DNA of 64,000 bases from Gammaproteobacteria bacterium (GTDB lineage: Bacteria; Pseudomonadota; Gammaproteobacteria; G965277405): positions 1,847,128 through 1,911,127 of the forward strand of contig OZ255726.1 in the NCBI GenBank assembly GCA_965277405.1, given 5' to 3'. The position numbers and the translations under genes were made by a program. The notes beneath the pieces were generated by a model. That model was given only the letters and a program-made list of their open reading frames with translations, was not told the DNA's origin and did not search any database. This document shows positions 1,796 to 57,913 of this stretch, piece by piece (position 1 is the first letter of the stretch; each line of letters starts with the position of its first letter).

Positions 1796-1908
1796 TCGGG
1801 TTATCTATATTCAATCAGCATTTCAATGTCGCGTGCACCTTTGATGAGCTTGGCAACAACAATTTTACTGATTACATCAAGCGAGAGTCGTTGTTTGGGA
1901 ACCTCTGA

Positions 1909-2382
1909 TCAACTCGCTGATGAAGCAAGTTTGTTGCCAATTGCTGATGCGGTGGCGGGTATTACCTTAAACACGCCAACTTCAACCGAGCAGACCTTGA
2001 CTGTTGCCCCAGAGGGAATGCGTGCAATATTTGCATTTGGGGCGAGTTCAACGCGCCAGTTGATGCCAGAATATTGCGTCGTGCTAGCTTGTGCTGACGT
2101 TATGTCGCTATCGATAACAAACATGTGACCGACCAAGTCGCTGCTGTTATCTTTGGCGATTGGACCCTTGCCTTGCAGGCGTTTGAATGGTATCCATAGC
2201 AACGCGGTGATGATACCTGTCCAAATGCCTGTACTGGCAATGCCGAAAACCCAAGACTCAGCAAGCACACCAGTCGTCATCAATATGCCTGTGGTCAGTG
2301 CAGCAAGCCCAGTAAATATAAACACACCTGTGCTAAAACCGCTGATGATTTCGATGATGAGCATCATGAAGCCGAAAAACAA
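1909..2382 (-). CDS. NfeD-family membrane protein (YbbJ-like), partner of the SPFH protein
   Basis: 157 aa with an N-terminal hydrophobic half and a C-terminal OB-like soluble half, immediately downstream of and co-directional with the SPFH gene (the qmcA-ybbJ arrangement). Confidence 0.6.
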   Translation of the reverse strand: MFFGFMMLIIEIISGFSTGVFIFTGLAALTTGILMTTGVLAESWVFGIASTGIWTGIITALLWIPFKRLQGKGPIAKDNSSDLVGHMFVIDSDITSAQASTTQYSGINWRVELAPNANIARIPSGATVKVCSVEVGVFKVIPATASAIGNKLASSAS

Positions 2383-3590: not shown

Positions 3591-3821
3591 TAAGGAAGCT
3601 CTGATTAAGTCCATGACGGGCGAGACGGAGCAAAAACGCTGCTGATAAATTAAGCGCAGTGCGCAGATAATACTGCTGGGTATTATTAAGTGCTGCAACG
3701 ACGTTAGTGCAGCGGTTTTGCTCAGTTCTTCTGTTGAATATACTTTGGGTTTGCGCCGTGCAATCATCAGCAATTGCAGGCAAACTCGCTCACTCGGCGG
3801 CTTAATCAGAGGTTCCCTAAG
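3591..3821. mobile_element. MITE-like non-coding element, copy a (~230 bp, inverted orientation relative to copies b and c)
   Basis: It begins CTAAGGAAGCTCTGATTAAGTCCATGACGGGCGAGACGG and ends GGCTTAATCAGAGGTTCCCTAAG. Its ends are inverted repeats of each other and match the other copies. No credible ORF lies inside. Confidence 0.7.
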
Positions 3822-5337: not shown

Positions 5338-5340
5338 GCG

Positions 5341-5598
5341 TTAGGCAAGGTTAGACATATATTTGCCTTTGACATAATCACGGGCTTTATCAAAATAAGC
5401 ATCATCAGCAACAGTGAATTTACCGTCCTCTACTTGTTGGCGTCCTAGAGCTATACGCTCATCAAGTTGTGAGTTTATAGACGACTTGATTTGATTTCTT
5501 AACGCTTCACGGATTACCTCACTTGCTGAGGCGTAATGCCCTGTTTCAAGTTGGCCAGCTACGTATTCTTCTAGGACTTTGGTTAGAGATATGTTCAT
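5341..5598 (-). CDS. Type II antitoxin, ParD family
   Basis: The likely start is MNISLTKVLEEYVAGQLETGHYASASEVIREALR… (a ParD signature). The upstream in-frame Met at 5664 gives an implausible hydrophobic leader. Confidence 0.7.
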   Translation of the reverse strand: MNISLTKVLEEYVAGQLETGHYASASEVIREALRNQIKSSINSQLDERIALGRQQVEDGKFTVADDAYFDKARDYVKGKYMSNLA

Positions 5599-5780
5599 GT
5601 TTACTCTTATTAAAAAAAAATAATTTAACACTAAACAGTATATATAAATAACAAAAAATGTCAATTCTTGTTATTTTTAGGTATAAGCCTTTAGGAGAAA
5701 TTGCAAGCTATAGCAAAAAATGTTGACATTAGCACAAAATCCTATTTCATTGCTAGCATAGGTTTATTTTCTAACGAGGT

Positions 5781-5969
5781 GTGATTATGACTACGAAATC
5801 TATAAGCGTTTCCGCTAATATTCCCGTAGAGCTAGGAGAGATGCTAGACAAAGTTTCACGGGCTGAGGAAAGGTCTAAAAGCTACTACATCAAAAAAGGG
5901 CTAGAGCAATTATTGAGAGATAGGCTAGAGGATTTAGAGGACTATCAAGACGCAAATACTGCTCGATAA
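5781..5969 (+). CDS. Ribbon-helix-helix (CopG/RelB-like) antitoxin, apparently orphan
   Basis: 62 aa (…SISVSANIPVELGEMLDKVSRAEERSKSYYIKKGLEQLL…) with an RHH fold pattern. No intact toxin ORF follows, and 5970..6470 holds only short broken frames. Confidence 0.5.
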   Translation: MIMTTKSISVSANIPVELGEMLDKVSRAEERSKSYYIKKGLEQLLRDRLEDLEDYQDANTAR

Positions 5970-6476
5970 TAGTTATTAATACTAATTGATGTCCACGGAT
6001 GAATGCCAGCAGCAGAGCGATTATAATCCCAATCCCCTCGCCTTGCCTTTTAGCTGAATCAAACCTTTGCCATGTATAACCGTTTTGAGTTTTTCAGATA
6101 TGCTCTTGTAATTTTTCATTGTTTTGACGCCCAAGACATTGTGAAGGATGCCATTGCTCCGGCAGCAGGTCAATCTCTACTAACGTAACCGATAGCATAT
6201 GCATTTGCAGTAAAAATACATGCAACAATTAATAGAAATGTAAAGTTAAAATATTTTTTCATGTGCTAAAGCTCCCTGTCTCTTAGTTATATTAGATTAA
6301 CTACTTTAAGTAAACGCGATTATCATACACAGTCGAATTCAAATTATTTTCAACTTTCTGCATTATAGTTGAAGTGCAGAATGTTACAAATCAAAATCTT
6401 GGCATAACTTTTGACAGAATCGCACTTTCGCACTTTCGCACTATAATACTGACATTACTTTCTAACCATACAAGCT

Positions 6477-6761
6477 ATGAGGTTACAAATGCCACTGGCA
6501 AAACTAAATGAGAAAAGGCAAATAACCGTCCCTATTGAGATATGTAATCAAATACACGCAGACAAAGGCGATATTTTTAATTTTGAGGTTGAAGGCGATA
6601 AGATCATTATGACGCTGCAAAAATTAGTCCCAGCTACAAAAGAAAATTCTCGCACTAAAGGCGTTGATATATATAAATATATAGGTTCAATGAAAGGTAC
6701 GTTTGGGTCTGTTGAAGAGATAGACGAATATATTCGTAACGAACGCGCTTCATGGGATTAA
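6477..6761 (+). CDS. AbrB/SpoVT-type antitoxin (VapB-like), pair 1
   Basis: 94 aa with the swapped-hairpin motif …RQITVPIEICNQIHADKGDIFNFEVEGDKIIM…. It overlaps the downstream PIN gene by 10 bp. The start may be Met5 (6489). Confidence 0.7.
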   Translation: MRLQMPLAKLNEKRQITVPIEICNQIHADKGDIFNFEVEGDKIIMTLQKLVPATKENSRTKGVDIYKYIGSMKGTFGSVEEIDEYIRNERASWD

Positions 6762-7201
6762 TTGAAATATTAAAAGAAAATGATGTTTATTTTGACGCTA
6801 TTATATTCATCTATTTATTAGATGGCAATGAAGCATACTCTACAGCCCTTGATGATATAAGGAAGCATATAGCTACTGATCAAGTTAGGGTTTTTAGTTG
6901 TAATTTAATCTATACGGAAATACTGCCTTATCATGCAAAGCAAAATAACCAAGGTGCTATTGAACATATAATTCGCTTTCTGGATAATTTTGATATTGTT
7001 AGAATATCTAAAGACATAACAATTCACGCAGGAATTTTACGTGGAGAAACTGGAATGAAAACCCCTGATGCTCTCCATGTTGCTACAGCTATAAATCAAA
7101 GTATAAATCAAAGATGCAGTCTGTTTTTAACAAATAATGCTGGTATTCGTGTACCTAAAAATATGCAACGCATTCTATTATCTGATTTTTGCGCTGAATA
7201 A
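6752..7201 (+). CDS. PIN-domain toxin (VapC-like), pair 1
   Basis: 149 aa with PIN acidic residues and the …MKTPDALHVATAI… motif. Its start overlaps the antitoxin. Confidence 0.7.
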   Translation: MGLIEILKENDVYFDAIIFIYLLDGNEAYSTALDDIRKHIATDQVRVFSCNLIYTEILPYHAKQNNQGAIEHIIRFLDNFDIVRISKDITIHAGILRGETGMKTPDALHVATAINQSINQRCSLFLTNNAGIRVPKNMQRILLSDFCAE

Positions 7202-7709
7202 TTGGATAACAATAAAATCATAAAAAAAGACCGAGCATAGGTGCATATTTTGACGATGAAGAAAAAGAGATTATTGAAGCTATTGAGCGAGATACATACT
7301 CTTTTGGCAAAAGTAACTTTAACCCTGAAAGGTTAGAGTTTTTAAGAAAGGTCGCAACAAACACTTTGAAAGAAAATGGTTTTATTGCTAATAACGCCTA
7401 GTTTGACAAAGCGCGTGATTATGGTCAAAAAAAATATATGTCTGACCATGATTAGCAATGACTATTTGCACTACGCTGTAAATGCAGAATGTGTAATTGT
7501 AAGAACGTGTCAATACGATGGTACGATACACTTAAAAATAATCTGAAAGAGCTTGGAGACGATCAAAGAATTCATTTTTGTCTGAGATCGTTTTTTCATT
7601 GTTGCTAGCTACTCCACGCGCTTCATCGTCCGCAGTAAAATTATCAATTAACACAACATCATTAGATGTTTGACCATCAATCAACATCAAAAAACTGTCT
7701 CCAATTTCC

Positions 7710-7925
7710 TTAGCAACGCTACGCTTAATTTATTGGCTAGATAGGGGTTCGAAAATAGCCAAGCTGTAGGCAATGAATGGAAAATTGCAAGTTATACAGA
7801 AGAAAAGTGACGACGACACGGAGATAAACAATGGAAAATATTGACGCATTGATGTTATCGTGAGCACAATTTGGTGGAAATATTACCTTAATCAAAGGTT
7901 CATTAAGCATTCATTAGCTATTGAC
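7710..7925. repeat. Right copy of the ~205-215 bp inverted repeat bracketing the TA island
   Basis: Reverse complement of 3897..4102. The frame of the small ORF seen in the left copy is broken here by a TAG. Confidence 0.8.
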
Positions 7926-13254: not shown

Positions 13255-13671
13255 ATGAGTAAATATGAATTACAATCGCAAGTCAAGTATACTTCAACAG
13301 CTATACTATGGTGGTTTTTTTTAGGCGCACATTATGCGTATATGGGTAAATGGGGATTGCAGTTTCTGTATTGGATACATCAAGTGGCTTTTGTTATCTC
13401 TTTATGGATCGTTTTATTTATAGCTGGTGCTTCTTTTATCGGGTATTCTTCAGACTCACAGCTGTATTTGATACCTCTAGCTCTTATGGCCTGGCCATTT
13501 ATCGATTTATTTACAATGTCAAGTAAAATTCACAAGCATAATGCGCCTATATTCTTGCAACTTGAAGAATTAGAAAAGAAAGAAAAAACAGAGGAACATG
13601 CTCGCAATATAGCAATGATAGCTGCTGCTACAGGAAACACAGAAACGTCATCAGCAGGAAGCTCTGATTAA
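13255..13671 (+). CDS. TM2-domain small membrane protein
   Basis: …LWWFFLGAHYAYMGKWGLQFLYW… is a TM2 signature. It has two TM helices and a polar C-terminal tail. Confidence 0.55.
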   Translation: MSKYELQSQVKYTSTAILWWFFLGAHYAYMGKWGLQFLYWIHQVAFVISLWIVLFIAGASFIGYSSDSQLYLIPLALMAWPFIDLFTMSSKIHKHNAPIFLQLEELEKKEKTEEHARNIAMIAAATGNTETSSAGSSD

Positions 13672-13968
13672 TTCCATGGTGGACTAGCCGCGTCTTGTTT
13701 AGATCAAGTTAAATAGGTAACGCAGGAATTCGCTCACAATTGCTTGTTCTATCATTCAGGTAGGCGGTTGTCGACAAGCAGCCGCCAGAGTTTATGTTGA
13801 TATGTATTTGCTGGTGATGCCAATGGCTGTAAACCTGTATGATATTTTGGGTATTATCTCCAGCAGTCGGCGCAGCGTTTGTTGCTGTGTGTTTAAAAAC
13901 TGATGGGTTATCTGGAGGAGTTATACCCATTCCCTCGCTGCTGCGATAAGTATGGCAATTTGCCAACT

Positions 13969-19922: not shown

Positions 19923-20351
19923 CTAATTGCGGTTGAAAAACACTCTGTCGAGTGACAATACGCCAGCACCACGACCGATGATATATACCAAGCATGTTGC
20001 CCAAATAAGATGCGTTGCCCAAGCACTTGGGTATACGAAAATCTGGATAACCATGGTCATAATCAGCAGTGACGCTGCGCTAAAGCGTGCAGCTAGGCCG
20101 ATTACTAACAGAATTGAAAATAAATGTTCAGCATATGTTGCGAGGTATGCGGCGAGCTTAAATGGAATAATCGGCAGGTCATATTCATATTCAAACAACA
20201 ATAAAGTCGAGGGTATGATTTCGATAATGCCGTCAACTTTGGTGCGAGCTGATAACCAAAAAGGAGTGGCGACGGCAAGCCGTGCCATTAGTGCTATGAT
20301 ACTGTGGGGGATGGTGTCAGCGATACGTGCCAGTGTATATAATAGTTTCAT
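19923..20351 (-). CDS. DoxX-family membrane protein (bufferin-operon DoxX component)
   Basis: 142 aa with four TM helices in the DoxX pattern. Its stop directly abuts the HK start codon, and it is the last gene of the DUF2282-MNIO-DUF2063 cluster. Confidence 0.65.
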   Translation of the reverse strand: MKLLYTLARIADTIPHSIIALMARLAVATPFWLSARTKVDGIIEIIPSTLLLFEYEYDLPIIPFKLAAYLATYAEHLFSILLVIGLAARFSAASLLIMTMVIQIFVYPSAWATHLIWATCLVYIIGRGAGVLSLDRVFFNRN

Positions 20352-21148
20352 AATGGCAATTTTCCGCCTGGGGTGAAAGAAATCGAGCTGATTGTTCCGT
20401 CAAAAAGCACAGATTGAAGCAATATTGTTAAGTCAAAACTTGGGTGTTGCTGCAGCGTATATTCTAACGCTGCTTGCATAGTATGCTGGTTGCAATAGCA
20501 TAAAAATGTATGGTCTGCGGCTTGCAATGTGCGTACTTCTACCGCTGCATGGCAACGCAGCGCCAGTATGTGTTTTGTTGAGCCGTCAAATACAATACCT
20601 GCTACAGCAGGTGGTGATTGTTGGTGGGCCTGCCAAATTGCATCAATTGGGTGTGGTGATGTTAGTAACTGCACGCTTGCATGGAGGTTGAGTTGTGCAC
20701 GTAACAGCTGTTCACCCGCAACTTTGGCAAGGTCGCTTGGTTTGAGCACGGGGTCATCTGTGGCGTGATACGCCAAATGCAAGGCGTATTCAAGTTTGGC
20801 AACGTCTGGCAAATAACCAACAGCTTGTAACGCTGGGTGTTGTTGGATACTGCGCTCAAGAAAAGCAACAAAATCACCACCGTAGCGGATCAACGTGCCG
20901 TGGCTAGGCAGGTTATCTGGAATAAATGCCTGAGCCAGCTGGGTAAAAGTAGTTTTGCCAATCAGTTGTTGGACAACAGGGTAGAGTGATGCTAATGCTT
21001 GAATAAGCGAGTGAACCACGTTGTTACGGTACACGTTCAAACGCTGCTGTTGGAGGGTGGTATTGGCTATATCTTGCAACGCAGTATTGTCGGCAGCGTC
21101 GAGCACAGATGCAGCGAAGGTGCGCTGCCATTGTAGCAGATTATTCAT
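20348..21148 (-). CDS. bufC: DUF2063-family protein (MNIO partner; BufC-like)
   Basis: The start MNNLLQWQRTF… overlaps the DUF692 stop as TAATG. Its position and size are those of the partner subunit of the DUF692 enzyme. The longer ORF to 21298 is an overlap artefact. Confidence 0.6.
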   Translation of the reverse strand: MNNLLQWQRTFAASVLDAADNTALQDIANTTLQQQRLNVYRNNVVHSLIQALASLYPVVQQLIGKTTFTQLAQAFIPDNLPSHGTLIRYGGDFVAFLERSIQQHPALQAVGYLPDVAKLEYALHLAYHATDDPVLKPSDLAKVAGEQLLRAQLNLHASVQLLTSPHPIDAIWQAHQQSPPAVAGIVFDGSTKHILALRCHAAVEVRTLQAADHTFLCYCNQHTMQAALEYTLQQHPSFDLTILLQSVLFDGTISSISFTPGGKLPL

Positions 21149-22005
21149 TATGCTGCTGCGGATTTGATCGCTTGTAAAATCGAGTTGGCGGTTGCTGCTT
21201 CGTCCAATAGGGTTTGCAGTGGCGGAATATTGGTATCCCATTCGATGAGGGTATGTACCGCGCCACAATGCCGAATCGCCTGACGGTATAATCCCCATAC
21301 ATTATCGCAGACGCGGCATGAATGATCGTCAATCAGCAAGCGTTGCTCGTCAATTTTCTCTTCGGCATGTCCTGCCAGATGGATTTCCTTGACCGCAGTA
21401 GCAGGGATTTCGCGAATGTATGCTTGCGCGTCTAAACCATTATTGATCGTGCTGACATAGATATTATTGACGTCTAATAAAATACCAGCGCCAGTACGTT
21501 TGTGGATGTTTGTTAAAAATTCAGTTTCGCTCATCGATGATGTTTGACTTGAGAAATAGGTCGATGGGTTTTCGAGGAGCAATGTTGTGTTGAGTTGTTG
21601 CTGGACATAGTCGATATTGTCACAGACCAATTGCAGCGACTCATTGGTATACGGGATGGGTAATAAGTCGTTGAAGAATTTTGCTTCGCTATAGCTCCAT
21701 GATAAATGGTCGGAAAACATGAACGGTTGATACCGCTCTTTTAAAGCGCATAATCGCTGCAAATGTGCATGTTGTTGCCAATTTGCGCTGCCGAGTGAAA
21801 GACCAATTGAATGAAATGAAAGTGGGTAATGTTGACGAATGGCATCAAGCTGTGCTAGGGGTGTGCCGCCACCACCCATATAATTTTCAGGATGCAATTC
21901 AAGCCAGCCAATGGCTGGCTTGAACCTGAGTAAATCATCAAAATGTTTGGGCTTAAAACAAATGCCGACAATATTGGTAGTATTATTGGTATTATTTGAG
22001 TGCAT
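21148..22005 (-). CDS. bufB: DUF692 / MNIO (multinuclear non-heme iron oxidative enzyme; MbnB/BufB-like)
   Basis: 285 aa with a TIM-barrel xylose-isomerase-like pattern (…ICFKPKHFDDLL…WLELHPENYMGGGG…HLAGH…), typical of DUF692 enzymes that modify Cys-containing precursor peptides. Confidence 0.75.
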   Translation of the reverse strand: MHSNNTNNTTNIVGICFKPKHFDDLLRFKPAIGWLELHPENYMGGGGTPLAQLDAIRQHYPLSFHSIGLSLGSANWQQHAHLQRLCALKERYQPFMFSDHLSWSYSEAKFFNDLLPIPYTNESLQLVCDNIDYVQQQLNTTLLLENPSTYFSSQTSSMSETEFLTNIHKRTGAGILLDVNNIYVSTINNGLDAQAYIREIPATAVKEIHLAGHAEEKIDEQRLLIDDHSCRVCDNVWGLYRQAIRHCGAVHTLIEWDTNIPPLQTLLDEAATANSILQAIKSAAA

Positions 22006-22025
22006 TTTAGAGTCTTATAACCTTA

Positions 22026-22286
22026 TTATTTGATTGGTGCTAAACTACCTCCCGACATTTTTGCACACGAGCCGTCGAGCACCAACATCCAAGCATTGCC
22101 CTGGTTATCGACCTTACTGGTTCCTGCGCATGTTGTACCTGGACCTGCTGCGCAATCGTTTTTTCCTGCTTTGGCAACGCCATAACATTTCTCTGTGCCA
22201 TCAGCTTGCGCCGGGACAGCAACCATCGCCAATGCGGCAGTAACTGCACTCGCAACTAACAAACTTGAAGCAACTTTTTTCTGCAT
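22026..22286 (-). CDS. bufA: DUF2282 bufferin-type RiPP precursor (secreted Cys-containing peptide; BufA-like)
   Basis: 86 aa with a Sec signal peptide (…AMVAVPAQA|DG) and a core [26 protein letters not shown]…[20 protein letters not shown] holding four conserved Cys. This matches the DUF2282 consensus. Confidence 0.75.
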
Positions 22287-22392
22287 AATAAATTCTCGTG
22301 ATTGAATAGAAGCGCATTATAGCCAAGGGCAACACCAACGGATATTAGGGAAAACCTGTATTGTTGTATGCGGCAGATTTGGGTGCTATACA

Positions 22393-22701
22393 TTAGGGAA
22401 GCTCTGATTAAGTCGCTGATGGAGCGAGTTTGATGGTAATTGCTGATGACTGCAAGGTGCAAACCGCACGCATGCCGCTGGCTCATGGCGGAGCATATCC
22501 GCCAAGGGGTGCAACACTGCAAGCGTAAGCAATTGGCGTAAACCAAGAGTATATTGCACACGGGAACGGGGGAAACGCAGCGCGTTGTTGTTGCAGCAGC
22601 ACGTGATAATACCACCAGTATTAGCTGCGCACTGCGCTTAAGTTATCATCAGCGTTGTTGTGCCGTCTCGCCCATCATGGACTTAATCAGAGGTTCGCGA
22701 A
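22393..22701. mobile_element. MITE-like non-coding element, copy b (~310 bp)
   Basis: Ends TTAGGGAAGCTCTGATTAAGTCGCTGATGGAGCGAGTTTGATGGTAATTGCTGATGA… and …CCGTCTCGCCCATCATGGACTTAATCAGAGGTTCGCGAA, which are inverted repeats. It lies ~100 bp upstream of bufA. Confidence 0.75.
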
Positions 22702-22941
22702 TGCAAGATAAGCCAACATTTATTAGGCGCATGGTTGCAGGATTTAGCTGACGATGCGCATATGATTAGCTATATTATTGGCGTCGGTATTGAATAAACT
22801 AAGCCAATACTCGCACCAAGCTATCGGCTTCACCACCACTGGGAGATGAGAACATGTGTTTAGCAGTTTACCGCGATTATAATCTGAAGCCGCTATGACG
22901 CGGCCAAGGCAATTACTGTTACACAAACAACTCTAACCACG

Positions 22942-24096
22942 ATGAAACGCAGCCATTTTGTGGTGCTGTGCATAGGCGGCTATTTGTTAGGAGCAGGGTA
23001 CGGGGCGTCTTTTTTGATTCCACAATATGTGTCGACATTTGGTGGAGATGCTGCACTGGCTGGGCAGATTATTGGTAGCGCAACGCTCGGTACAATCATC
23101 GTAGTCCTGCTTTCAGGGCATTTTGCTGATAAGTTTGGTCTTATCCAATGCTGCACATATTCCAGTATTTTAATGGTATGTTCGATGGCGTTGTTTGCCA
23201 GCAACCATGACGTTGTGGTATTGCAAATTGCAGGTTTGTTGCTTGGTACAGGTTGGGGGTTATTTTATTGCTTGGGTGTCGTGTTGCTCGCCGCTGTTAT
23301 TCCCAAGTCGCGGCGCACGCACGCGTTTGCGTTGTTGTCTGGCATGCAAATGGCAGGCATTGGCACAGGGTCGCTGATTGGATATTGCGTCACAGCATTC
23401 GGTCAGTCCATTGCATACGCTTTCGTTATTACTGCGTGCATGGCGGGTGCGACGTTGCTGCTGTACAGCTATTTAAGCCAAGTTGTGAAAACAACAAATA
23501 TTATAGCTAACAAAGTATCTGCGGCAGCGGTTGCTGCGGTGTTGCGCGCCCAGGCGCGCTATCCCATTATTATTGTGAGTATTGGTGGCGGAATATTTGG
23601 TAGTTTTTCAACTTTCCAAGCTGATTTTGCCCACAGCCATCAGCAGCAATATGGGGTGTTTTTTATTTGTTTTGTTATTGCTGTGATTGTCGGTCGGTTG
23701 TTGTTGTCTGGAATTGTTACCAAACGCGACCCGTTGATCGCGGCGTTGCTGCTGTCGACGCTAGTGCTGGTTGCGATGTTAATGTTTGCATGGTTCATCA
23801 ACAATATTATCTGGTATGCCACAGCGTCAATCTTGTATGGTCTTGGCTACGGGCTGCTGTATTCGGTTATCAATGGTCAAGTCGCCAACGAATCACCAAG
23901 TCAATGCGTACCACAAGCAATCGCGTTGTTTAGTATGGGCTATTTTATCGGTTTATTCGGTATGCCGTTTATTGCTGGAATAGTTATTGTTGGCGCAGGA
24001 ATTCCAGTCATGGTTTGGCTTATGGTCGCACTCGCGGGGGCAAATGTTGTGATTACTAGCTATCGACTGATCGCGCATAGGCCGCACCAGTACTAG
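22942..24096 (+). CDS. MFS transporter
   Basis: 384 aa with 12 predicted TM helices and MFS motif-A-like loops. Confidence 0.7.
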   Translation: MKRSHFVVLCIGGYLLGAGYGASFLIPQYVSTFGGDAALAGQIIGSATLGTIIVVLLSGHFADKFGLIQCCTYSSILMVCSMALFASNHDVVVLQIAGLLLGTGWGLFYCLGVVLLAAVIPKSRRTHAFALLSGMQMAGIGTGSLIGYCVTAFGQSIAYAFVITACMAGATLLLYSYLSQVVKTTNIIANKVSAAAVAAVLRAQARYPIIIVSIGGGIFGSFSTFQADFAHSHQQQYGVFFICFVIAVIVGRLLLSGIVTKRDPLIAALLLSTLVLVAMLMFAWFINNIIWYATASILYGLGYGLLYSVINGQVANESPSQCVPQAIALFSMGYFIGLFGMPFIAGIVIVGAGIPVMVWLMVALAGANVVITSYRLIAHRPHQY

Positions 24097-32199: not shown

Positions 32200-33180
32200 A
32201 TGCGCAACACGCTCAGCAAAATCCTGCTCGCCGCTTGGTACCAGCAACACCCGCTACGCTGGCTGCTGATCCCTATTTCATGGGTATATTGGCTGCTAGT
32301 GCTGCTGCGCCAACAGCCACGCCAGCCCAGCGAAAAACTGACGATTATTGTGGGCAATTACACCGTCGGCGGCACAGGCAAAACAGAGATAATCAAAGCA
32401 ATAGCACTCCATTATCCACAACTAAAAATTGGCATCGCCTATCAAGCGTATCGGGTTGATATCGCCACAGCACAGCTGGTAGATGCTGCCAACCCAAGCG
32501 TTTTTGGTGATGAACCGAGCATGCTCTTGCAGCATTGTGCGGCGCTGATTGCCGTTGCCAACAGCAGAGCAGATGCTGTTGCCTTGCTCAACCAACGCGA
32601 TGATGTTGATATTATTTTGCTCGATGATGGACTCCACAGCGCAGTCGCCCGCGATGCAGAAATTGTTCTTTTTGACGCACGCGGCGTTGGTAATGGCCAC
32701 CTCATCCCCGCCGGTCCGCTGCGCGTCCCGCTGCACAACACCGCCACCCAGCCAACAGCCAAGCGATTTATTGCGAGTAAAGGCAGCCCGCAACAACCAC
32801 AATTTTCCCACTTACCCGTATTCAGCTACCGAGTAAGCGCAATCGCCAATGCAGCGGGACAAATCAGCGTCGCAACATGGAAAAACCGCTATGCAGAGCA
32901 ACCTATTGTTGCCTTATCTGCCATCGCCAACCCACAAGGATTTTATCAGACCCTTGTCGACATAGGGATTTCATTCACCGCGTTGACCTTGGCTGACCAC
33001 AGCACCCTCGCAGATGCAGATTTTAACGACGATACCGTGTATCTGATGACCGCAAAAGACGCCGTAAAATATCAGCACTTACCTGCTAAGTATATCTGGC
33101 ATGTGGCTATTGAGCTAATCCCACCAACAGGATTATGGGACTTTGTTGATGAAGTTATTGCCAAAGGAAGTTCTGATTAA
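32200..33180 (+). CDS. lpxK: Tetraacyldisaccharide 4'-kinase LpxK
   Basis: P-loop …IIVGNYTVGGTGKTE… with a length of 326 aa, immediately after msbA. Confidence 0.85.
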   Translation: MRNTLSKILLAAWYQQHPLRWLLIPISWVYWLLVLLRQQPRQPSEKLTIIVGNYTVGGTGKTEIIKAIALHYPQLKIGIAYQAYRVDIATAQLVDAANPSVFGDEPSMLLQHCAALIAVANSRADAVALLNQRDDVDIILLDDGLHSAVARDAEIVLFDARGVGNGHLIPAGPLRVPLHNTATQPTAKRFIASKGSPQQPQFSHLPVFSYRVSAIANAAGQISVATWKNRYAEQPIVALSAIANPQGFYQTLVDIGISFTALTLADHSTLADADFNDDTVYLMTAKDAVKYQHLPAKYIWHVAIELIPPTGLWDFVDEVIAKGSSD

Positions 33181-33221
33181 GCCATGCTGGGCAAGACAGA
33201 ACAACAACGAAAGCCCACACC

Positions 33222-33416
33222 ATGAAACCAAGCTCGCGCATCCTACCAATCATCGTCTGCCCACTGTGTAAAGCACCGCTACACCGCGTTGGTGCAGAAC
33301 TCTGGTGCCGTGCTGAAAAAATCGCCTATCCAATCCAAGGCAAATCGCTGCAGCTATTCGTCGCAGCTGCACGACCATTATCGCTGGAAGAGCTGGAAAA
33401 GCAGCTGTTACCATAG
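33222..33416 (+). CDS. Trm112/YcaR-family small zinc-ribbon protein
   Basis: 64 aa with …IVCPLCKAPL…LWC…IAYPIQ… in the YcaR pattern, at the usual position after lpxK. Confidence 0.65.
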   Translation: MKPSSRILPIIVCPLCKAPLHRVGAELWCRAEKIAYPIQGKSLQLFVAAARPLSLEELEKQLLP

Positions 33417-33771
33417 TTGTCGCCGCTATACATAACTTAACATAACTTATTACTCCATCGGCTGGGGTGGAGTCTTGGCGGTTACGCTGCAGCCGAACGG
33501 TCGCAGCTTAACGCCAAACCCCCGCGCTAATCCGTCAATCCCGCTCCTTACCAAGAACCAAGAACCAATAAGCAATAACCGATAACAGTAGCTATTCGAC
33601 CGCAGCGACCAAGCCCCTTGTTTGCTCAGGCTGCTGTGAATTGGGGCAGCATTAGCAAAACTCTGATGCAGCCGCTAATGCAGCGAGTAGATTAAACTAG
33701 GTTTTTTACCTTGTATTTCTTGCCCAAAGTATGCCAACATTAGCCTATAGAAATATTTACTGCCGCAGCCT

Positions 33772-34689
33772 ATGAAATATTTACTGCCAATACTCATGAG
33801 TGCCGCCCTCTTGGCGTTCTCAACCGTGGGTTGTGCTGCCGATTTGCAGCAAGGTCTAACTACCTATAACAATAGCGACTACCCAACTGCTATTCGCGAA
33901 TTACAACCGCTTGCTGAACAGGGCAATGCCGAAGCCCAGTTCAAGCTGGGTGTAATGTATTATAACGGAAAAGGCGTGCCGCAAGACTCTAAGGTGGCGC
34001 TGCAGTGGTATGAACGTGCCGCAGCACAGCGATATGCCAAAGCCCAGTTACAGATGGGTTTAATGTATTTTTACGGAAAAGGTGTAGCGCAAGACGCTAA
34101 GGCGGGGCTGCAGTGGTATAAACTTGCCGCAGCACAGGGAGATGCCGACGCCCAGAGCATTCTGGGTTGGATGTATGGTAAAGGAGAAGGTGTAGCGCAA
34201 GACTATCAGGCGGCGCTGCAGTGGTGTAAACTTGCCGCAGCACAGGGAGATGCTGACGCCCAGAACAATATGGGTTGGATGTATCATAATGGATACGGTG
34301 TATTGCAAGACTATCAGGCGGCGCTGCAGTGGTATAAACTTGCCGCAGCACAGGGAAATGCCAACGCCCAAGTCAATTTGGGAATGATGTATGGTAGCGG
34401 AAAAGGTGTGCCGCAAGACTATAAGGCGGGGCTGCAGTGGTATAAACTTGCCGCAGCACAGGGAGATGCTGACGCCCAAAACAATCTGGGAGTGATGTAT
34501 GCTAACGGAACAGGTGTAATCCAAGATAATGTGTATGCCCATATGTGGTATAATATTGCGGCGTATAATGAAAGTACGACAGGAGCAAAATCGCGAGATA
34601 GTCTTGCTAAAGTAATGACCGCTGCCCAGATCGCTAGCGCACAGCAACTTGCCCGTGAATGTGTCAAGAAAAAGTATAAGGGGTGTTGA
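33772..34689 (+). CDS. Secreted Sel1-repeat (SLR/TPR-like) protein, short paralog
   Basis: 305 aa with a signal peptide (MKYLLPILMSAALLAFSTVGCAADLQQ) and about seven 36-aa Sel1 repeats (…AQ.NLG.MY..G.GV.QDY..A..WYKLAAAQG.A…). Confidence 0.8.
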   Translation: MKYLLPILMSAALLAFSTVGCAADLQQGLTTYNNSDYPTAIRELQPLAEQGNAEAQFKLGVMYYNGKGVPQDSKVALQWYERAAAQRYAKAQLQMGLMYFYGKGVAQDAKAGLQWYKLAAAQGDADAQSILGWMYGKGEGVAQDYQAALQWCKLAAAQGDADAQNNMGWMYHNGYGVLQDYQAALQWYKLAAAQGNANAQVNLGMMYGSGKGVPQDYKAGLQWYKLAAAQGDADAQNNLGVMYANGTGVIQDNVYAHMWYNIAAYNESTTGAKSRDSLAKVMTAAQIASAQQLARECVKKKYKGC

Positions 34690-34867
34690 ATAGCAGCGTT
34701 GTCAACTTGATGCTAGCTGTGCTGCCACCTTGCCAACAGTGCTAGCCTAGGCTAATCAGGTTGTGACGTAGACGATGAGAAAATATATGTCACAGCAGCA
34801 GAAAACTAGGCTGCTGCGTTGCATCCCTCGGCGTATATGCTACGGCATGCGCTCAAGGTAATGTGCG

Positions 34868-34943
34868 CGGAATGCGCTTTGCAATCATCAGCAATTGCCA
34901 TCAAACCAGCCCCATCAGCGGCTTAATCAGACCTTCCCAAGGG
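34868..34943. repeat. Solo end fragment of the MITE-like element (copy e)
   Basis: …GCAATCATCAGCAATTGCCATCAAACCAGCCCCATCAGCGGCTTAATCAGACCTTCCCAAGG matches the B-type end of the full copies. It marks the duplication-unit junction. Confidence 0.6.
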
Positions 34944-35357
34944 TAACTGCGTTATTTACTGCCTCACGCTCCTTATCGCTTGAAGATCTGGAAAAGGAGC
35001 TGCAAACATAGTTGTCGCCGCTATACATAACTTAACATAACTTATTATTCCATCGGCTGGGGTGGAGTCTTGGCGGTTACGCTGCAGCCGAACGGTCGCA
35101 GCTTGACGCCAAACCCCCGCGCTAATCCGTCAATCCCACTCCTTACCAAGAACCAAGAACCAATAACCAATAACAGCAGCTATTCGACCGCAGCGACCAA
35201 GCCCCTTGTTTGCTCAGGCTGCTGTGAATTGGGGCAGCATTAGCAAAACTCTGATGCAGCCGCTAATGCAGCGAGTAGATTAAACTAGGTTTTTACCCTG
35301 TATTTCTTGCCCCAAGTATGCCAACATTAGCATATGAAATATTTACTGCCGAAGCCT

Positions 35358-38219
35358 ATGAAATATTTACTGCCAATACTAATGAGTGCCGCCCTCTTGG
35401 CGTTGTTAACCGCGGGTTGTGCTGCCGATTTGCAGCAAGGTTTAACTGCCTATAACAATAGCGACTACCCAACTGCTATTCGCGAATTACAACCGCTTGC
35501 TGAACAGGGCAATGCCGACGCCCAGTACAAGCTGGGTCTGATGTATTATAACGGAAAAGGTGTGCCGCAAGACTATAAGGCGGCGCTGCAGTGGTATAAA
35601 CTTGCCGCAGCACAGGGAGATGCCAGTTCCCAGTACAAGCTGGGTCTAATGTATGACAACGGAAAAGGTGTAGCTCAGGACTATAAGGAGGCGCTGCAGT
35701 GGTATAAACTTGCCGCAGCACAAGGACATGCCGATGCCCAGTACAATCTGGGTCTAATGTATGACAACGGAAAAGGTGTAGCTCAGGACTATAAGGAGGC
35801 GCTGCAGTGGTATGAACTTGCCGCAGCACAGGGAAAAGCCAGTGCCCAGGACAGTCTGGGTCTGATGTATTATAACGGAAAAGGTGTGCCGCAAGACTAT
35901 AAGGCGGCGCTGCAGTGGTACAAACTTGCCGCAGCACAGGGAGATGCTGTTGCCCAGTACAATCTGGGTATAATGTATGGTAATGGAAAAGGTGTAGCGC
36001 AAGACTATAAGGCGGCGCTGCAGTGGTATAAACTTGCCGCAGCACAGGGAGATGCTGACGCCCAAAACAATCTGGGAGTGATGTATGCTAACGGAACAGG
36101 TGTAGCGCAAGACTATAAGGCGGCGCTGCAGTGGTATAAACTTGCCGCAGCACAGGGAGATGCCGTAGCCCAGAACAATCTGGGTAATAAGTATAAGAAT
36201 GGAAAAGGTGTAACGCAAGACTATAATGCGGCGCTGCAGTGGTATAAACTTGCCGCAGCACAAGGTCATGCTGACGCCCAGTTTAAGCTGGGTTTAATGT
36301 ATTATAACGGAAAAGGTGTAGCGCAAGACTATAAGGCGGCACTGCAGTGGTGGAAACTTGCCGCGGCACAGGGAGATGCTGTTGCCCAGTACAATCTGGG
36401 TATAATGTATGGTAATGGAAAAGGTGTAGCGCAAGACTATAAGGCGGCGCTGCAGTGGTGGGAACTTGCCGCAGCACAGGGATATGCCAGTGCCCAGGAC
36501 AGTCTGGGTAGGATGTATAATTACGGAAAAGGTGTAGCGCAAGACTATAAGGCGGCGTTGCAGTGGTATAAACTTGCCGCAGCACAGGGATATGCCAGTG
36601 CCCAGTACAAGCTGGGTCTAATGTATGACAACGGAAAAGGTGTAGCGCAAGACGATAAGGAGGCGCTGCAGTGGTATAAACTTGCCGCAGCACAAGGACA
36701 TGCCACAGCCCAGTTCAATTTGGGTGTGATGTATAACCACGGACATGGTGTAGCGCAAGACTCTAAGGCGGCGGTGCAGTGGTGGAAACTTGCCGCAGCC
36801 CAGGGAGAAGCCGACGCCCAGTTCAATCTGGGTGTAATGTATGCTAACGGAAAAGTTGTAGCGCAAGACTATCAGGAGGCGCTGCAGTGGTATAAACTTG
36901 CCGCAGCACAGGGACATGCCAAGGCCCAGTACAATCTGGGTTGGATGTATGGAAATGGAAAAGGTGTAGCTCAAGACTCTAAGGCGGCGGTGCAGTGGTG
37001 GAAACTTGCCGCAGCACAAGGATATGCCAGTGCCCAGAACAGTCTGGGTAGGATGTATAAGTACGGAAAAGGTGTAGCGCAAGACTATCAGGCGGCGCTG
37101 CGCTGGTATAAACTTGCCGCAGCACAGGGATATGCCGCAGCACAGGACAATCTGGGAGTGATGTATAAGCATGGATACGGTGTGGCGCAAGACTCTAAGG
37201 CGGCGCTGCAGTGGTGGAAACTTGCCGCAGCACAGGGACATGCTGGCGCCAAGTTCCATTTGCGTTGGTATAAGAACGGAAAAGGTGTGCCGCAAGACTC
37301 CAAGGCGGCGCTGCAGAGGCATAAACTTGCCGCTGCACAGGGAGAAGCCGCAGCCCAGTTGAATTTGGGTTTAATGTATAAGAACGGAAAAGGTGTAGCG
37401 CAAGACTATAAGGCGGCGCTGCAGTGGTTTAAACTTGCCGCAGCACAGGGAGTTGCCAGTGCCAAGTACAATCTGGGTATAATGTATGCTAACGGAAAAG
37501 GTGTAGCGCAAGACAATAAGGAGGCGCTGCAGTGGTATAAACTTGCCGCAGCACAGGGAGATGCCATGTACCAGTTCCATCTGGGTTTCATGTATGATAA
37601 CGGAAAAGGTGTGCCGCAAGACTATAAGGCGGCGCTGCAGTGGTATAAACTTGCCGCAGCACAGGGACACGCCACAGCCCAGTTCAATCTGGGTGTAACG
37701 TATGATAACGGAAGAAAAGGTGTACCACAAGACTATAAGGCGGCGCTGCAGTGGTACAAACTTGTCGCAGCACAGGGACATGCCGTAGCCCAGACCAATC
37801 TGGGAGTGATGTATACTAACGGAAAAGGTGTATTGCAAGACTATGAGGTGGCGCTGAAGTGGTATAAACTTGCCGCAGCACAGGGAGAAGCCAACGCCCA
37901 AGCCAATCTGGGAATCATGTATGGTAGCGGAGAAGGTGTAGCGCAAGACTATCAGGCGGCGCTGCAGTGGTGGACACTTGCCGCAGCACAGAGACACGCC
38001 GGTGCCCAGTTCAATCTAGGTTGGATGTATGCTAACGGAACAGGTGTACTCCAAGATAATGTGTATGCCCATATGTGGTACAATATTGCGGCGTATAATG
38101 GCAGTGCGCAAGGAGCAAAGTTGCGAGATCGGCGTGCTAAAGTAATGACCGCTGCCCAGATCGCTAGCGCACAGCAACTTGCCCGTGAATGTGTCAAGAA
38201 AAAGTATAAGGGGTGTTGA
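35358..38219 (+). CDS. Secreted Sel1-repeat protein, expanded paralog (~26 repeats)
   Basis: It has the same signal peptide and the same first and last repeats as the short paralog, with the internal 108-bp units amplified and nearly identical at the DNA level. The ORF track begins at 35334 because of a duplicated MKYLLP codon block. The likely start is 35358. Confidence 0.8.
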   Translation: MKYLLPILMSAALLALLTAGCAADLQQGLTAYNNSDYPTAIRELQPLAEQGNADAQYKLGLMYYNGKGVPQDYKAALQWYKLAAAQGDASSQYKLGLMYDNGKGVAQDYKEALQWYKLAAAQGHADAQYNLGLMYDNGKGVAQDYKEALQWYELAAAQGKASAQDSLGLMYYNGKGVPQDYKAALQWYKLAAAQGDAVAQYNLGIMYGNGKGVAQDYKAALQWYKLAAAQGDADAQNNLGVMYANGTGVAQDYKAALQWYKLAAAQGDAVAQNNLGNKYKNGKGVTQDYNAALQWYKLAAAQGHADAQFKLGLMYYNGKGVAQDYKAALQWWKLAAAQGDAVAQYNLGIMYGNGKGVAQDYKAALQWWELAAAQGYASAQDSLGRMYNYGKGVAQDYKAALQWYKLAAAQGYASAQYKLGLMYDNGKGVAQDDKEALQWYKLAAAQGHATAQFNLGVMYNHGHGVAQDSKAAVQWWKLAAAQGEADAQFNLGVMYANGKVVAQDYQEALQWYKLAAAQGHAKAQYNLGWMYGNGKGVAQDSKAAVQWWKLAAAQGYASAQNSLGRMYKYGKGVAQDYQAALRWYKLAAAQGYAAAQDNLGVMYKHGYGVAQDSKAALQWWKLAAAQGHAGAKFHLRWYKNGKGVPQDSKAALQRHKLAAAQGEAAAQLNLGLMYKNGKGVAQDYKAALQWFKLAAAQGVASAKYNLGIMYANGKGVAQDNKEALQWYKLAAAQGDAMYQFHLGFMYDNGKGVPQDYKAALQWYKLAAAQGHATAQFNLGVTYDNGRKGVPQDYKAALQWYKLVAAQGHAVAQTNLGVMYTNGKGVLQDYEVALKWYKLAAAQGEANAQANLGIMYGSGEGVAQDYQAALQWWTLAAAQRHAGAQFNLGWMYANGTGVLQDNVYAHMWYNIAAYNGSAQGAKLRDRRAKVMTAAQIASAQQLARECVKKKYKGC

Positions 38220-38286
38220 ATAGCAGCGTTGTCAACTTGATGCTAGCTGTGCTGCCACCTTGCCAACATTGCTAGCCTAGGCTAAT

Positions 38287-38313
38287 CAGCGGACTTAATC
38301 AGACCTTCCCAAG
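38287..38313. repeat. Solo end fragment of the MITE-like element (copy f) overlapping the thiQ 3' end
   Basis: AGCGGACTTAATCAGACCTTCCCAAGG. The last ~7 codons and the TAA stop of thiQ are encoded by this fragment. Confidence 0.55.
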
Positions 38314-38918
38314 GTAACTACGTTATTTACTGCCGCTGTATCTTGCGGGTCGTGGGTTACCAGCAGCGTGGTGATCTGTTGTTGTTGGATAAAACGATAG
38401 CACCATTGGCGTAGGTCATGCCGCAGTGTTTGGTCAAGCGATGCAAACGGCTCGTCGAGCAGCAACACTTTAGGTCGCGTCACCAACGTCCGCGCGATGG
38501 CAACGCGTTGTTGTTCCCCGCCTGAAATATTGCAGACATGGCTAGTTGCCAAATGGGCGATTTGACAAGTTGCTAACATCGTCATTGCTCGCTGGCGCGC
38601 TTGTTTTTTGGGAAGTTTATACAAGCCAAAGGTAATATTGCTGAGCACATTAAGGTGGGGAAACAACGCATACTGCTGGAAGACAAAACCAACATTACGC
38701 AGTTGTGGCGGGACGGTGTGGATAGGCGTGCCGTTTAATATTATTTCGCCGCTATCACCATTTTCCAGTCCGGCAATGACCCGCAATAAAGTCGATTTAC
38801 CGCAGCCAGATGCACCCAGGACAGCGGTAATGCTCCCAGTGGCGCAGCGCAGCGAAAAGTCACTAAACAACGGCGGTTTGCCTGCAAAAGTTTTTGATAA
38901 ACGCTGTATTTCAAGCAT
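38295..38918 (-). CDS. thiQ: Thiamine ABC transporter ATP-binding protein ThiQ
   Basis: A 207-aa single ABC domain (Walker A GASGCGKST, signature ISGGEQQRV, Walker B LLLDEPF). It is the last gene of the thiB-thiP-thiQ operon with a TPP riboswitch upstream. Confidence 0.75.
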   Translation of the reverse strand: MLEIQRLSKTFAGKPPLFSDFSLRCATGSITAVLGASGCGKSTLLRVIAGLENGDSGEIILNGTPIHTVPPQLRNVGFVFQQYALFPHLNVLSNITFGLYKLPKKQARQRAMTMLATCQIAHLATSHVCNISGGEQQRVAIARTLVTRPKVLLLDEPFASLDQTLRHDLRQWCYRFIQQQQITTLLVTHDPQDTAAVNNVVTLGRSD

Positions 38919-40464
38919 ACCACACTACTGGTTGACGACCGCGCACCAACGCATACCAGGCAACTACTAGGCAGAGTAGCTCTATCGCAATCAGTTGGGC
39001 GTGAAAATGGTTGATAGCACCAGCACGGCTTATTTTCTGGTAGAGCAACGTTGTTAAAGCAAGCCATTTTGGGCGTGATAAAAACAGGGTAATGGCAAAT
39101 TCACCAATAGCGGTTGCCCCGGCAATGGTCAGCCCTTGTCGCCATACTGGTAACATTAGCGGGATGATAATTCGCAGCCAAACCCGCAAGTTTGATGCCC
39201 CAAGCGTCTGAGCTGCCTCGATATAACTGACTGATATGCGCTCGAGTGCGCTAGTCAATTGCAGACCTAATAATGGATATGCAATAAAAATATACGCGGC
39301 GAGCAACACAGTCATTGAGCCAGCAACGCCTGGGTATGCATGCAGAATCCCAACCCCGAGTAAAACTGGAGATATAAGCCATGGCAGGAGAAAGACGCCA
39401 CGCATCCATCGCCAACGCAGCGTACAAATTGCATGCAGCCATGCCAAGACGCTGGCTCCTACTGCCGTAATAAGCGTAAACGTCAGCGTATTTATCCAAG
39501 CAGCACGATGCTGAGCAGAGCTGAATAATTGCCAACTGCTGGACCATGACCAGTCGATAATCGGTGACAACAACGCCAGCAGTATTGGGGTAATACACAC
39601 GCAACAAAACACGCTGATGATTACGCTAATACCACTGCGTTGCTGCCATGTTGTCAGCGGTTTTGTTGCCAGCGGCTGCGGTGTGTGTTGGTGGCGTATA
39701 TGGCTATGCAGCCATGCATATATTGCGATCAATATGCCGCCTAGCGTCAACAGGGTCAGCGCCAACACTGTTGCTGCGCTAATTTTGAGTTGGTGGGCGA
39801 GCAAAGAATAAATCTCAACTTCAATGGTCGCATGGCGAAACCCAGACAGCATTATTGCCAAGCTAAAATTGCTGCTGCAGAAGGCGACGACCAATACTAA
39901 GCAGGTGGATAATTGCGCAGCTATTAACCGCAGTTCGAGGATAAAAAAACGTCGGGTATTGCTAAAACCAAGTAATGTCGCTGCTGCAAGCAGCGGTTTT
40001 GGCAGTGAAGAAAATGCTTTTTGGCAGGTAATTGCGACAAACCCTGCGTTAAAAAACACATTGCCAAATATCAACAGCAATGGATGTTGTTCATGCCATA
40101 TCAACAAGATACCTTGTGCCGCGACTAATGTTGGCATGACAAAGGGAAGCAACAAGCTGCGTTCGATTATTTGCTGCCCAAAGAAATGAAAACGTGCCAA
40201 CACCCAGCCGAGGGCCACACCAATCAACCCAGCGGCGGCGGCACTTGCCAACGCCTGTCCGATGGTCCATGCCAGCACCCGCTGATAATAACGCTCTTGT
40301 AACATAGCCCAAGGGAGTGATTCCGCGTGGCTGAGCAATCCAGCCAACGGAATCACCACAATGAAGGTAACCATAGTTGCCACTGCAACCAAGCTGAGGA
40401 CTGCCAATCGTGTAGCAACAAGCAGGTGGATTGTTATTCTCCACGAATCATAATAGCAATCCAT
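38911..40464 (-). CDS. thiP: Thiamine ABC transporter permease ThiP (duplicated permease domain)
   Basis: A 517-aa two-module permease with about 12 TM helices, in the ThiP-type architecture between thiB and thiQ. Confidence 0.75.
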   Translation of the reverse strand: MDCYYDSWRITIHLLVATRLAVLSLVAVATMVTFIVVIPLAGLLSHAESLPWAMLQERYYQRVLAWTIGQALASAAAAGLIGVALGWVLARFHFFGQQIIERSLLLPFVMPTLVAAQGILLIWHEQHPLLLIFGNVFFNAGFVAITCQKAFSSLPKPLLAAATLLGFSNTRRFFILELRLIAAQLSTCLVLVVAFCSSNFSLAIMLSGFRHATIEVEIYSLLAHQLKISAATVLALTLLTLGGILIAIYAWLHSHIRHQHTPQPLATKPLTTWQQRSGISVIISVFCCVCITPILLALLSPIIDWSWSSSWQLFSSAQHRAAWINTLTFTLITAVGASVLAWLHAICTLRWRWMRGVFLLPWLISPVLLGVGILHAYPGVAGSMTVLLAAYIFIAYPLLGLQLTSALERISVSYIEAAQTLGASNLRVWLRIIIPLMLPVWRQGLTIAGATAIGEFAITLFLSRPKWLALTTLLYQKISRAGAINHFHAQLIAIELLCLVVAWYALVRGRQPVVWYA

Positions 40465-44415: not shown

Positions 44416-44424
44416 TAGCCGTTA

Positions 44425-44518
44425 AGGCAGCTCTGATTAAGTCCATGACGGGGGAGACGGAGCAAAAACGCTGATGATAACTTAAGCGCATGCGTAGCTA
44501 ACATTGGTGGGTATTATC
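44425..44518. repeat. Solo end fragment of the MITE-like element (copy d, A-type end)
   Basis: GGCAGCTCTGATTAAGTCCATGACGGGGGAGACGGAGCAAAAACGCTGATGATAACTTAAGCGCA… matches the A-type end of copies a and b. Confidence 0.6.
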
Positions 44519-44555
44519 AATTGACCAGCCGTTACAGACAAGGCGTAGCAAATGG

Positions 44556-55530: not shown

Positions 55531-55924
55531 AATGAATTTTCATTCTCACGGCTTCCACACTCAATTAAGACACCAGCCAACCGCAGGCGACGCCGACGAT
55601 TAGTATAAAAAATGTGAGCATAGTTAGCGCTCGCTAGTTGCGCAGCATCCAGCTTTTCCCATTCGCTTCACTCCTTATGTTTAGTAACTAATACAGTACC
55701 AGCTTCTTAGTTAGCTGATGTCTGAACAACCTCCGTAGCATTTACACCCGTGCTTTTCACGGCAACAGATTTATGAACCAGCATTCTGCAAGTAATTGGC
55801 TGATTTCAGTTCGATCAGCTGCATCTGTGCTATTTTGCAGCACGGCTAGTGAAACTTTGTTTAATATACTGTTCAATATATAACGGTTTGCGGTACTTGC
55901 AGTGTTGCATCCTTAGGCGTATAG

Positions 55925-55998
55925 CTGGGCATGCGTCAGCGGATTGCAATTATCAGCAATTGCACGCAAACTCGCTCACTCAGCGGCTTATGCAAAGG
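55925..55998. repeat. Solo end fragment of the MITE-like element (copy g, B-type end)
   Basis: …GCAATTATCAGCAATTGCACGCAAACTCGCTCACTCAGCGGCTTATGCAAAGGTTCCTTAAAG, about 50 bp upstream of the multicopper oxidase start. Confidence 0.6.
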
Positions 55999-56046
55999 TT
56001 CCTTAAAGCCATTTAGCGCCTAAATTACCATTGAGGAGTAGCCAAG

Positions 56047-57600: not shown

Positions 57601-57913
57601 GGAACCTCTGATTAAGTCGCTGATGGAGTGAGTTTGATGGCAATTGCTGATGATTGCAAGGCGCAAACCGCTAAGCGCATGCCAAGCTTATACGCCAAGG
57701 GATGCAACACAGCAAGGTCAGCAATTGCCGCAAAGCATAAGTATATTCAACAGATGGACGGGAAAAAACACTGCGCTACTACAGCTAACGTCGTTGCAGC
57801 ACTTGGCAACACCCACAAGAGTATTATCTGCGCACTGCGTTTAAGTTTCATCGAGCGTTTTTGTCCGTCTCGCCCATCGTGGACTTAAGCAGAGATTCCT
57901 TAGAAGTCATTGA
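57601..57913. mobile_element. MITE-like non-coding element, copy c (~310 bp)
   Basis: GGAACCTCTGATTAAGTCGCTGATGGAGTGAGTTTGATGGCAATTGCTGATGATTGCAAGGCGCAAACC… and …CCGTCTCGCCCATCGTGGACTTAAGCAGAGATTCCTTAG. It shares the architecture of copy b. Confidence 0.75.

Follow-up and report, generated by a model that had tools for sequence, protein, structure and literature searches.

Short non-coding repeats in a deep-branching gammaproteobacterium: a probable family of type II MITEs with IS5-family ends

The window analyzed here, a 64-kb stretch (64,000 nucleotides) of the genome of a deep-branching gammaproteobacterium (best non-self MnmG match 60%), carries ten pieces of one non-coding repeat family, at a density of about one per 6 kb. 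Searching the window with the copies by blastn, together with repeat finding, delimited three two-ended copies of 223-301 bp (a, b and c) and at least seven fragments (Table 1). The pieces lie next to a toxin-antitoxin island, a bufferin-type operon, duplicated repeat-protein genes and a multicopper oxidase gene, and some fragments are also found at the 3' ends of the core genes lpxK and lpxB. Seven of the ten pieces are truncated; those at 34812-34937, 44426-44545 and 55869-56002, each 120-135 bp long, keep part of the interior. The first-pass annotation of this DNA had described a MITE-like family without coding capacity, bounded by terminal inverted repeats, in three full copies, with copy a inverted relative to b and c, and four solo ends. 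All of these were recovered, including the orientation of copy a, but three of the solo ends had been measured too short, the limits of the full copies had to be corrected, and the fragments at 1898-1949, 13657-13690 and 33166-33209 had been overlooked.

Table 1 Coordinates and flanking tetranucleotides of the repeat pieces, of related elements in other assemblies and of neighbouring features. Flanks are given left / right on the + strand.
Feature	Position	Strand	Flanking tetranucleotides	Description
Repeat copy a	3594..3816	-	CTAA (3590-3593) / CTAA (3817-3820), perfect direct 4-bp duplication	Full, 223 bp; inverted relative to b and c; lacks an interior block of ~80 bp present in b and c
Repeat copy b	22397..22697	+	TTAG (22393-22396) on the left only; right terminus degraded, TTCG, no matching duplication	Full, 301 bp, B end to A end; divergent intergenic region between bufferin-precursor gene (22026-22286, -) and MFS transporter gene (22942-24096)
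Repeat copy c	57601..57899	+	TTAG (57900-57903) on the right only; left flank without match	Full, 299 bp, B end to A end; between multicopper oxidase gene (56047-57564) and 3' end of rnt (RNase T)
Truncated copy	34812..34937	-		B-end terminal repeat and ~110 bp of interior; downstream of first 36-aa-repeat gene
Truncated copy	55869..56002	-	TTAA (56003-56006)	B end and interior; terminal repeat towards multicopper oxidase gene
Truncated copy	44426..44545	+	TTAA (44422-44425)	A end and ~100 bp of interior; occupies the lpxB-pilD intergenic space
Solo B end	1898..1949	+		52 bp
Solo A end	33166..33209	+		Overlaps stop of lpxK (32200-33180)
Solo A-end fragment	13657..13690	+		34 bp
Solo terminal repeat	38285..38309	-		Flank same as that of the 34937 end; part of duplicated repeat-gene region
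Repeat copy, other assembly	L056 5124-5409		TTGG / TTGG	Two-ended
Repeat copy, other assembly	L056 9468-9775		ATAA / ATAA	Two-ended
Repeat copy, other assembly	L061 5620-5902		TTAG / TTAG	Two-ended
Repeat copy, other assembly	L058 18213-18503		TTAG / TTAT	Two-ended
Remaining five repeat copies, including b and c			Mismatched	Two-ended
IS copies	L060, L061		TTAG / TTAG	
IS copies	L058, L063		CTAG / CTAG	
Other three IS copies			Agree at 3/4 positions	
Element of ~4 kb	3910-7902 (region 3894-7918)		TTAA (3906-3909) / TTAA (7903-7906), direct	209-bp inverted arms, 96% complementary; adjoins copy a
Decayed DUF772 transposase N-terminus	about 4181-4650			Within the ~4-kb element
Bufferin-type RiPP operon	20348-22286	-		Precursor, 86 aa, Cys-rich, signal peptide (22026-22286); MbnB/TglH/ChrH-family enzyme (21148-22005, E 5e-99); DUF2063 protein (20348-21298)
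36-aa-repeat genes	33772-34689 and 35334-38219			Adjacent genes; 29 tandem 108-bp (36-aa) repeats, 61-100% identical to a reference copy
Regions upstream of 36-aa-repeat genes	33370-34049 and 34965-35635			Duplicated, 93-96%
TPP riboswitch (RF00059)	41511-41599	-		70.3 bits; upstream of thiamine ABC transporter operon
Thiamine ABC transporter operon				Substrate-binding protein (40434-41480), permease (38911-40464)
157-aa ORF	1909-2382			Downstream of SPFH/Band-7 gene; 3' end overlapped by a repeat fragment

The element starts with GGAA and finishes with TTCC, and the CTAA or TTAG found outside these limits is target DNA. The CTTAG/CTAAG termini proposed earlier are in fact made up of the target tetranucleotide together with the element's first G. 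The two ends, GGAAGCTCTGATTAAGTCCATGAYGGGCGAGACGG and GGAACCTCTGATTAAGTCGCTGATGGAGCGAGTTTG, together form an imperfect inverted repeat of ~32 nt with a near-perfect 16-nt core, GGAASCTCTGATTAAG. A 13-nt core (CTCTGATTAAGYC, at most two mismatches) occurs 16 times in the window, compared with 1.8 occurrences expected, and none of 100 shuffled sequences reached 16. The distinction between A-type and B-type ends, already drawn in the first-pass annotation, is real, and the two types are also conserved in the copies from other assemblies described below. Pairwise identity of the window copies is 79-82%, with 80-95% conservation at the ends and 56-75% in the middle. With such divergence, with one duplication retained among three full copies and with most pieces truncated, the copies in the window look old.

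Several neighbouring features are worth describing. Copy a adjoins an element of about 4 kb with a variant of the IS5-type end of the repeats, TGAACCTTTGATTAAGG, at its tips. Its cargo comprises the decayed N-terminus of a DUF772 transposase and small toxin-antitoxin-like gene pairs; the genes in the counterpart of window positions 4653-5956 in another assembly (L058 11991-13294) are called as ParE toxin and ParD antitoxin. This element looks like an IS5-derived cargo transposon, that is, a mobile island. Copy b lies ~110 bp upstream of the bufferin-precursor gene. Because it separates the bufferin operon from the divergent neighbouring gene, it could matter for the regulation of the operon, and a regulatory side-effect is possible. 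Repeat fragments follow both of the 36-aa-repeat genes and have identical flanks, so the duplication of this region was later than the insertion.

No open reading frame is conserved across the copies: the longest frame is on a different strand or in a different frame in each, and the indels between the window copies (1, 2, 4, 14 and 82 nt) are not multiples of three. A small-protein reading of the copies was therefore discarded, and the frames predicted inside them are artefacts, as had been proposed. The window also lacks an intact transposase, and a tblastn search of it with the IS5-family transposase of the metagenome locus L017 (see below) as query gave no match. The elements of this family are thus small, and they encode no transposase.

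The terminal repeat itself led to the IS5 family. Scanning metagenome contigs with GAASCTCTGATTAAGYCSMYGA gave 47 loci, which have only the first 26-40 nt in common with the window elements. These loci were rejected as members of the same family, since their interiors are not shared, and they belong to other MITE or IS families; this end therefore heads many different elements. Among them, a 1182-bp element found at L017, L038 and L024 has these ends and encodes a 319-aa protein with DUF772 and DDE_Tnp_1 domains, which at L017 matches the NCBIfam model NF033581 'IS5 family transposase' with an E value of 4.6e-102. In addition, an annotated E. coli copy of an IS5-like ISPpu21 has related ends, GGATGGTCTGAAG and GGAAACTCTGAAAAAGAC, and is flanked by CTAA on both sides. 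From these two matches, the terminal repeat of the window elements is assigned as an IS5-family (IS5-group) end, so that a family for which the first-pass annotation had found no named match, and which is still unnamed, can at least be placed by its ends. In 23 of the 47 metagenome loci, the four nucleotides preceding GGAA are YTAR, and perfect 4-bp direct flanks (CTAA, CTAG, TTAA or CTTA) were found at six two-ended loci representing five distinct elements. As a separate observation, GGAASCTCTGATTAAGYC (16-18 nt) heads many otherwise unrelated two-ended elements of 119-299 bp in the metagenome loci (L007-L053), and it would seem that many MITE families have arisen independently from this type of IS5 end.

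Using homologues of the window DUF772 ORF, we reached two ENA assemblies, ERZ26859071 and ERZ26859072, in which eight loci (L056-L063, ~125 kb) contain both the same repeat family and a candidate partner. Ten further two-ended copies were found there, 76-90% identical to those of the window, and within the family the identity between some copies reaches 96%. Many copies are thus dispersed among unrelated flanks, with ten pieces in the 64 kb of the window and ten two-ended copies in ~125 kb elsewhere. The same loci hold seven copies of an IS of 1208-1229 bp with ends GGAAKCTCTGATTAAG (in full, GGAATCTCTGATTAAGTCCCAAAC... and ...GAGCGTCTTAATCAGAGCTTCC), which have the same 16-nt core as the repeats; indeed, GGAASCTCTGATTAAG is identical on the short elements and on these 1.2-kb, NF033581-encoding ISs. 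An autonomous element with the same terminal repeat, which had been envisaged in the first-pass annotation, has therefore been found. Its transposase, of 315 aa, has an N-terminal DUF772 domain and a DDE_Tnp_1 catalytic domain, scores 329.7 bits on NF033581 and is ~50-53% identical to annotated IS5 and IS1384-like transposases. The IS had no name among the resources searched. The short elements and the IS are alike over the outer 16-19 nt and unrelated beyond ~19 nt, with no detectable similarity between the interior of the former and the IS. This identifies the short elements as 'type II' MITEs that mimic the ends of the IS, rather than as deletion derivatives of it.

The partner IS also appears to be present outside the window, elsewhere in the source genome. 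At 90%, the protein cluster to which the 315-aa transposase belongs comprises full-length members (315 and 318 aa: P0251, P0253, P0256 and P0257) and fragments on a contig of 2,174,577 bp, which also carries the RNase T and MnmG of the window at 100% identity. P0251 is identical to the transposase of the IS copies at L060-L063 and occurs on five contigs, one of them in the '>1 Mb' class. This evidence for an autonomous partner in the same genome is strong but indirect, as it is based on membership of a protein cluster at 90% and on the length of the contig, and not on the DNA of the IS. The DUF772 remnant of the window (4252-4587) was considered as the parent transposase and rejected: it is part of another IS5-like element, which has decayed and has the ends TGAACCTTTGATTAAGG, and it shows only weak similarity to the L017 transposase (23% over 70 aa).

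Perfect direct duplications of 4 bp flank 4/10 two-ended MITE copies (one of the three in the window) and 4/7 copies of the IS (Table 1). Every informative, that is, non-palindromic, pair of flanks is direct and none is inverted, which means that the flanks are duplicated target DNA and lie outside the terminus. The short elements thus make the same 4-bp, YTAR-like duplication as the partner IS. This is the manner of the IS5 group, and not the TNA or TA target suggested earlier. Two tandem arrays, in which neighbours have the 4-bp spacer in common, are informative with regard to target choice. At L061 (5616-7118), the order is TTAG-MITE-TTAG-IS-TTAG, and at L062 (4792-6316) it is IS-TTAA-IS-TTAG-MITE; these arrays indicate that new insertions re-use the tetranucleotide beside an existing end.

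Taken together, we consider it very likely (probability of about 0.9) that the repeats of the window are non-autonomous type II MITEs of the IS5 family, mobilized in trans by an IS5-family transposase. The lack of a matching duplication at two of the three full copies in the window weighs against this reading. Under the mechanism we propose, GGAASCTCTGATTAAG (the outer 16 nt, extending up to the ~32-nt ends) would be the sequence that an IS5-family DDE transposase binds and cleaves; this enzyme would be supplied by the partner IS elsewhere in the genome and act in trans on the MITE ends. The element would then be inserted at a YTAR-like tetranucleotide, where a cut with a 4-bp stagger would give rise to the 4-bp direct duplication. 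The catalytic steps would be those of IS5-family DDE transposases in general. Such mobilization may still be taking place today, and it may have effects on neighbouring genes.

The divergence of the window copies, their frequent truncation and the two missing duplications would also be expected if the pieces were immobile fossils, either decayed IS ends or the products of one ancestral duplication, that were never mobilized as short units. We regard this as very unlikely. Two-ended copies of 280-310 bp carry duplications of their own (CTAA, TTGG, ATAA and TTAG) at unrelated sites in three assemblies, and the identity of up to 96% between some copies also speaks against it. Furthermore, since the interior of the MITEs has nothing in common with that of the IS, independent decay of IS copies cannot have produced them.

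The folding of the copies raises another alternative, namely that they are a structured non-coding RNA or a cis-regulatory leader, retained for a functional hairpin in the transcript. Indeed, all three full copies fold far better than shuffled sequences (z = -5.3, -4.6 and -5.2), and copy b lies upstream of the bufferin operon, within a region of divergent promoters. However, the fold that the three copies share is a stem of ~30 bp formed by the inverted ends, and it is the pairing of these ends that makes the fold strong; the interiors fold differently from copy to copy. The long hairpin predicted in the first-pass annotation thus holds for the terminal stem only. At the gathering threshold, the only Rfam match in the window was the TPP riboswitch of Table 1, away from the copies, and copy b had no match at E <= 1. 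When eight two-ended copies drawn from three assemblies were aligned, RNAalifold gave an unfavourable covariation term (+3.97). Of the 26 pairs of the terminal helix, 13 are invariant and 3 vary on one side; in the other 10 the only changes break the pair, and none of the pairs has a compensatory change. Over the whole structure, the number of pairs changed on both sides was equalled or exceeded in 85 of 500 shuffles and the covariation score in 41 of 500. The absence of compensatory changes in the terminal helix indicates that the ends are conserved as sequence, as a protein-binding site would be, and not as a helix. Scans for promoters and terminators in and around copies b and c gave nothing above chance, and the family occurs in both orientations, in unrelated contexts and in truncated forms. 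For these reasons, we give very little credence to a conserved RNA, a possibility that the first-pass annotation had also raised.

Least credible of all, in our view, is that the copies are recombination or attachment sites delimiting accessory cassettes. The first-pass annotation had placed the elements at nearly every putative accessory junction, and this reading draws on their positions beside the genes named in the first paragraph and on the 98.9% identity between part of the island beside copy a (4653-5956) and a contig of another assembly. Against it, the copies in the window have no associated tyrosine or serine recombinase, fragments abut lpxK and lpxB as well, both pieces around the multicopper oxidase gene aim their outer ends at the gene, which is neither a cassette-bounding nor a composite-transposon-like geometry, and homologous recombination between dispersed MITEs would be a secondary consequence and not their mechanism of origin.

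A type II MITE family of the IS5 family fits well with what is known of that group. As in IS5, ISPpu21 and IS1384, the terminal repeat starts with GGAA and has the form ...CTCTGA..AAG, insertion duplicates a YTAR-type tetranucleotide directly, and the partner is an IS of ~1.2 kb with a single DDE transposase (315 aa, NF033581). Unlike the members of this group, the window elements encode nothing and have only the outer 16-19 nt in common with the IS, while the partner transposase is only ~50% identical to its closest named relatives. The Correia elements (CREE/NEMIS) of Neisseria are abundant intergenic MITEs of 100-160 bp with inverted ends of ~26 bp, often found beside genes, that form hairpins when transcribed; they duplicate TA and carry functional promoter, IHF and RNase III sites, and they are not known to have a partner IS. 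Their ends are unrelated to those described here, and promoter, IHF and RNase III sites of this kind were not found in the window MITEs.

Close parallels are BrickBuilt, MITE239 and MITE464 of Porphyromonas gingivalis and ATR of Neisseria meningitidis, which are type II MITEs with IS5-family ends (PMC4596501). These elements are short and non-coding, and have terminal repeats matching those of full-length IS5-family ISs present in the same genome, with interiors unrelated to the IS; many copies are partial, and duplications are present on some copies only (PMC4596501). The window family resembles them in its IS-type ends with an unrelated interior, its partial copies and its patchy duplications (PMC4596501). 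It differs in its ends (GAGACCTTTGCA there, GGAASCTCTGATTAAG here), its host lineage, the absence of an internal minisatellite and duplications that are consistently of 4 bp. A blastn search of 72,556 plasmids with copy a gave no match, and a literature search with the core sequence returned chance matches to primers only. The family is thus new and unnamed, although its kind is well known; it is one further documented example of a type II MITE paired with an IS5-family transposase and leaves the understanding of such elements unchanged.

The host appears to be distant from the genomes available for comparison. In the genome collection, the A-end pattern had no match and the relatives of MutL were 36-46% identical. 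Looking up exact proteins of the window or of the source genome gave no record. The closest non-self matches were ~60% for MnmG and 63% for RNase T; the nearest RNase T relative (63%, L054) has pyrC-rnt in common with the window, and synteny stops at rnt. Each MITE copy of the window is nevertheless closer to a copy from the ERZ assemblies (81-90%) than to another copy of the window. In addition, the 315-aa IS5 transposase and a 90-aa remnant (P0122) are identical between the source genome and ERZ26859071/ERZ26859072, and window positions 4653-5956 are 98.9% identical to L058 11991-13294, whereas for MsrB, a housekeeping protein, the amino-acid identity between the window and L061 is only 60%. 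Near-identical mobile DNA in spite of such a distance between proteins points to a mobilome shared horizontally by distant hosts, and these sequence comparisons suggest recent horizontal exchange of mobile DNA between the host of the window and the ERZ assemblies. That the IS/MITE pair itself belongs to a mobilome exchanged between distantly related bacteria is a tentative proposal, which we consider possible but rather doubtful. If it were true, MITE copies would be carried into new genomes on larger islands, of which the 4-kb toxin-antitoxin element with IS5 ends by copy a is an example, and would seed those genomes, and their very high local density would make them a main driver of rearrangement in this small genome.

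Recognizing the family has practical consequences for annotation. It removes spurious ORFs, for example those at 3576-3824, 22256-22615, 22554-22751 and 57628-57888, and it flags likely hot spots of recombination and assembly error in a 2.17-Mb genome from a poorly sampled lineage. It also accounts for odd gene ends, such as that of lpxK, the stop codon of which (33180) lies inside a fragment. As MITE fragments overlap the 3' ends of both lpxK and the 157-aa ORF that follows the SPFH/Band-7 gene, both proteins may now have C-termini that derive in part from the element.
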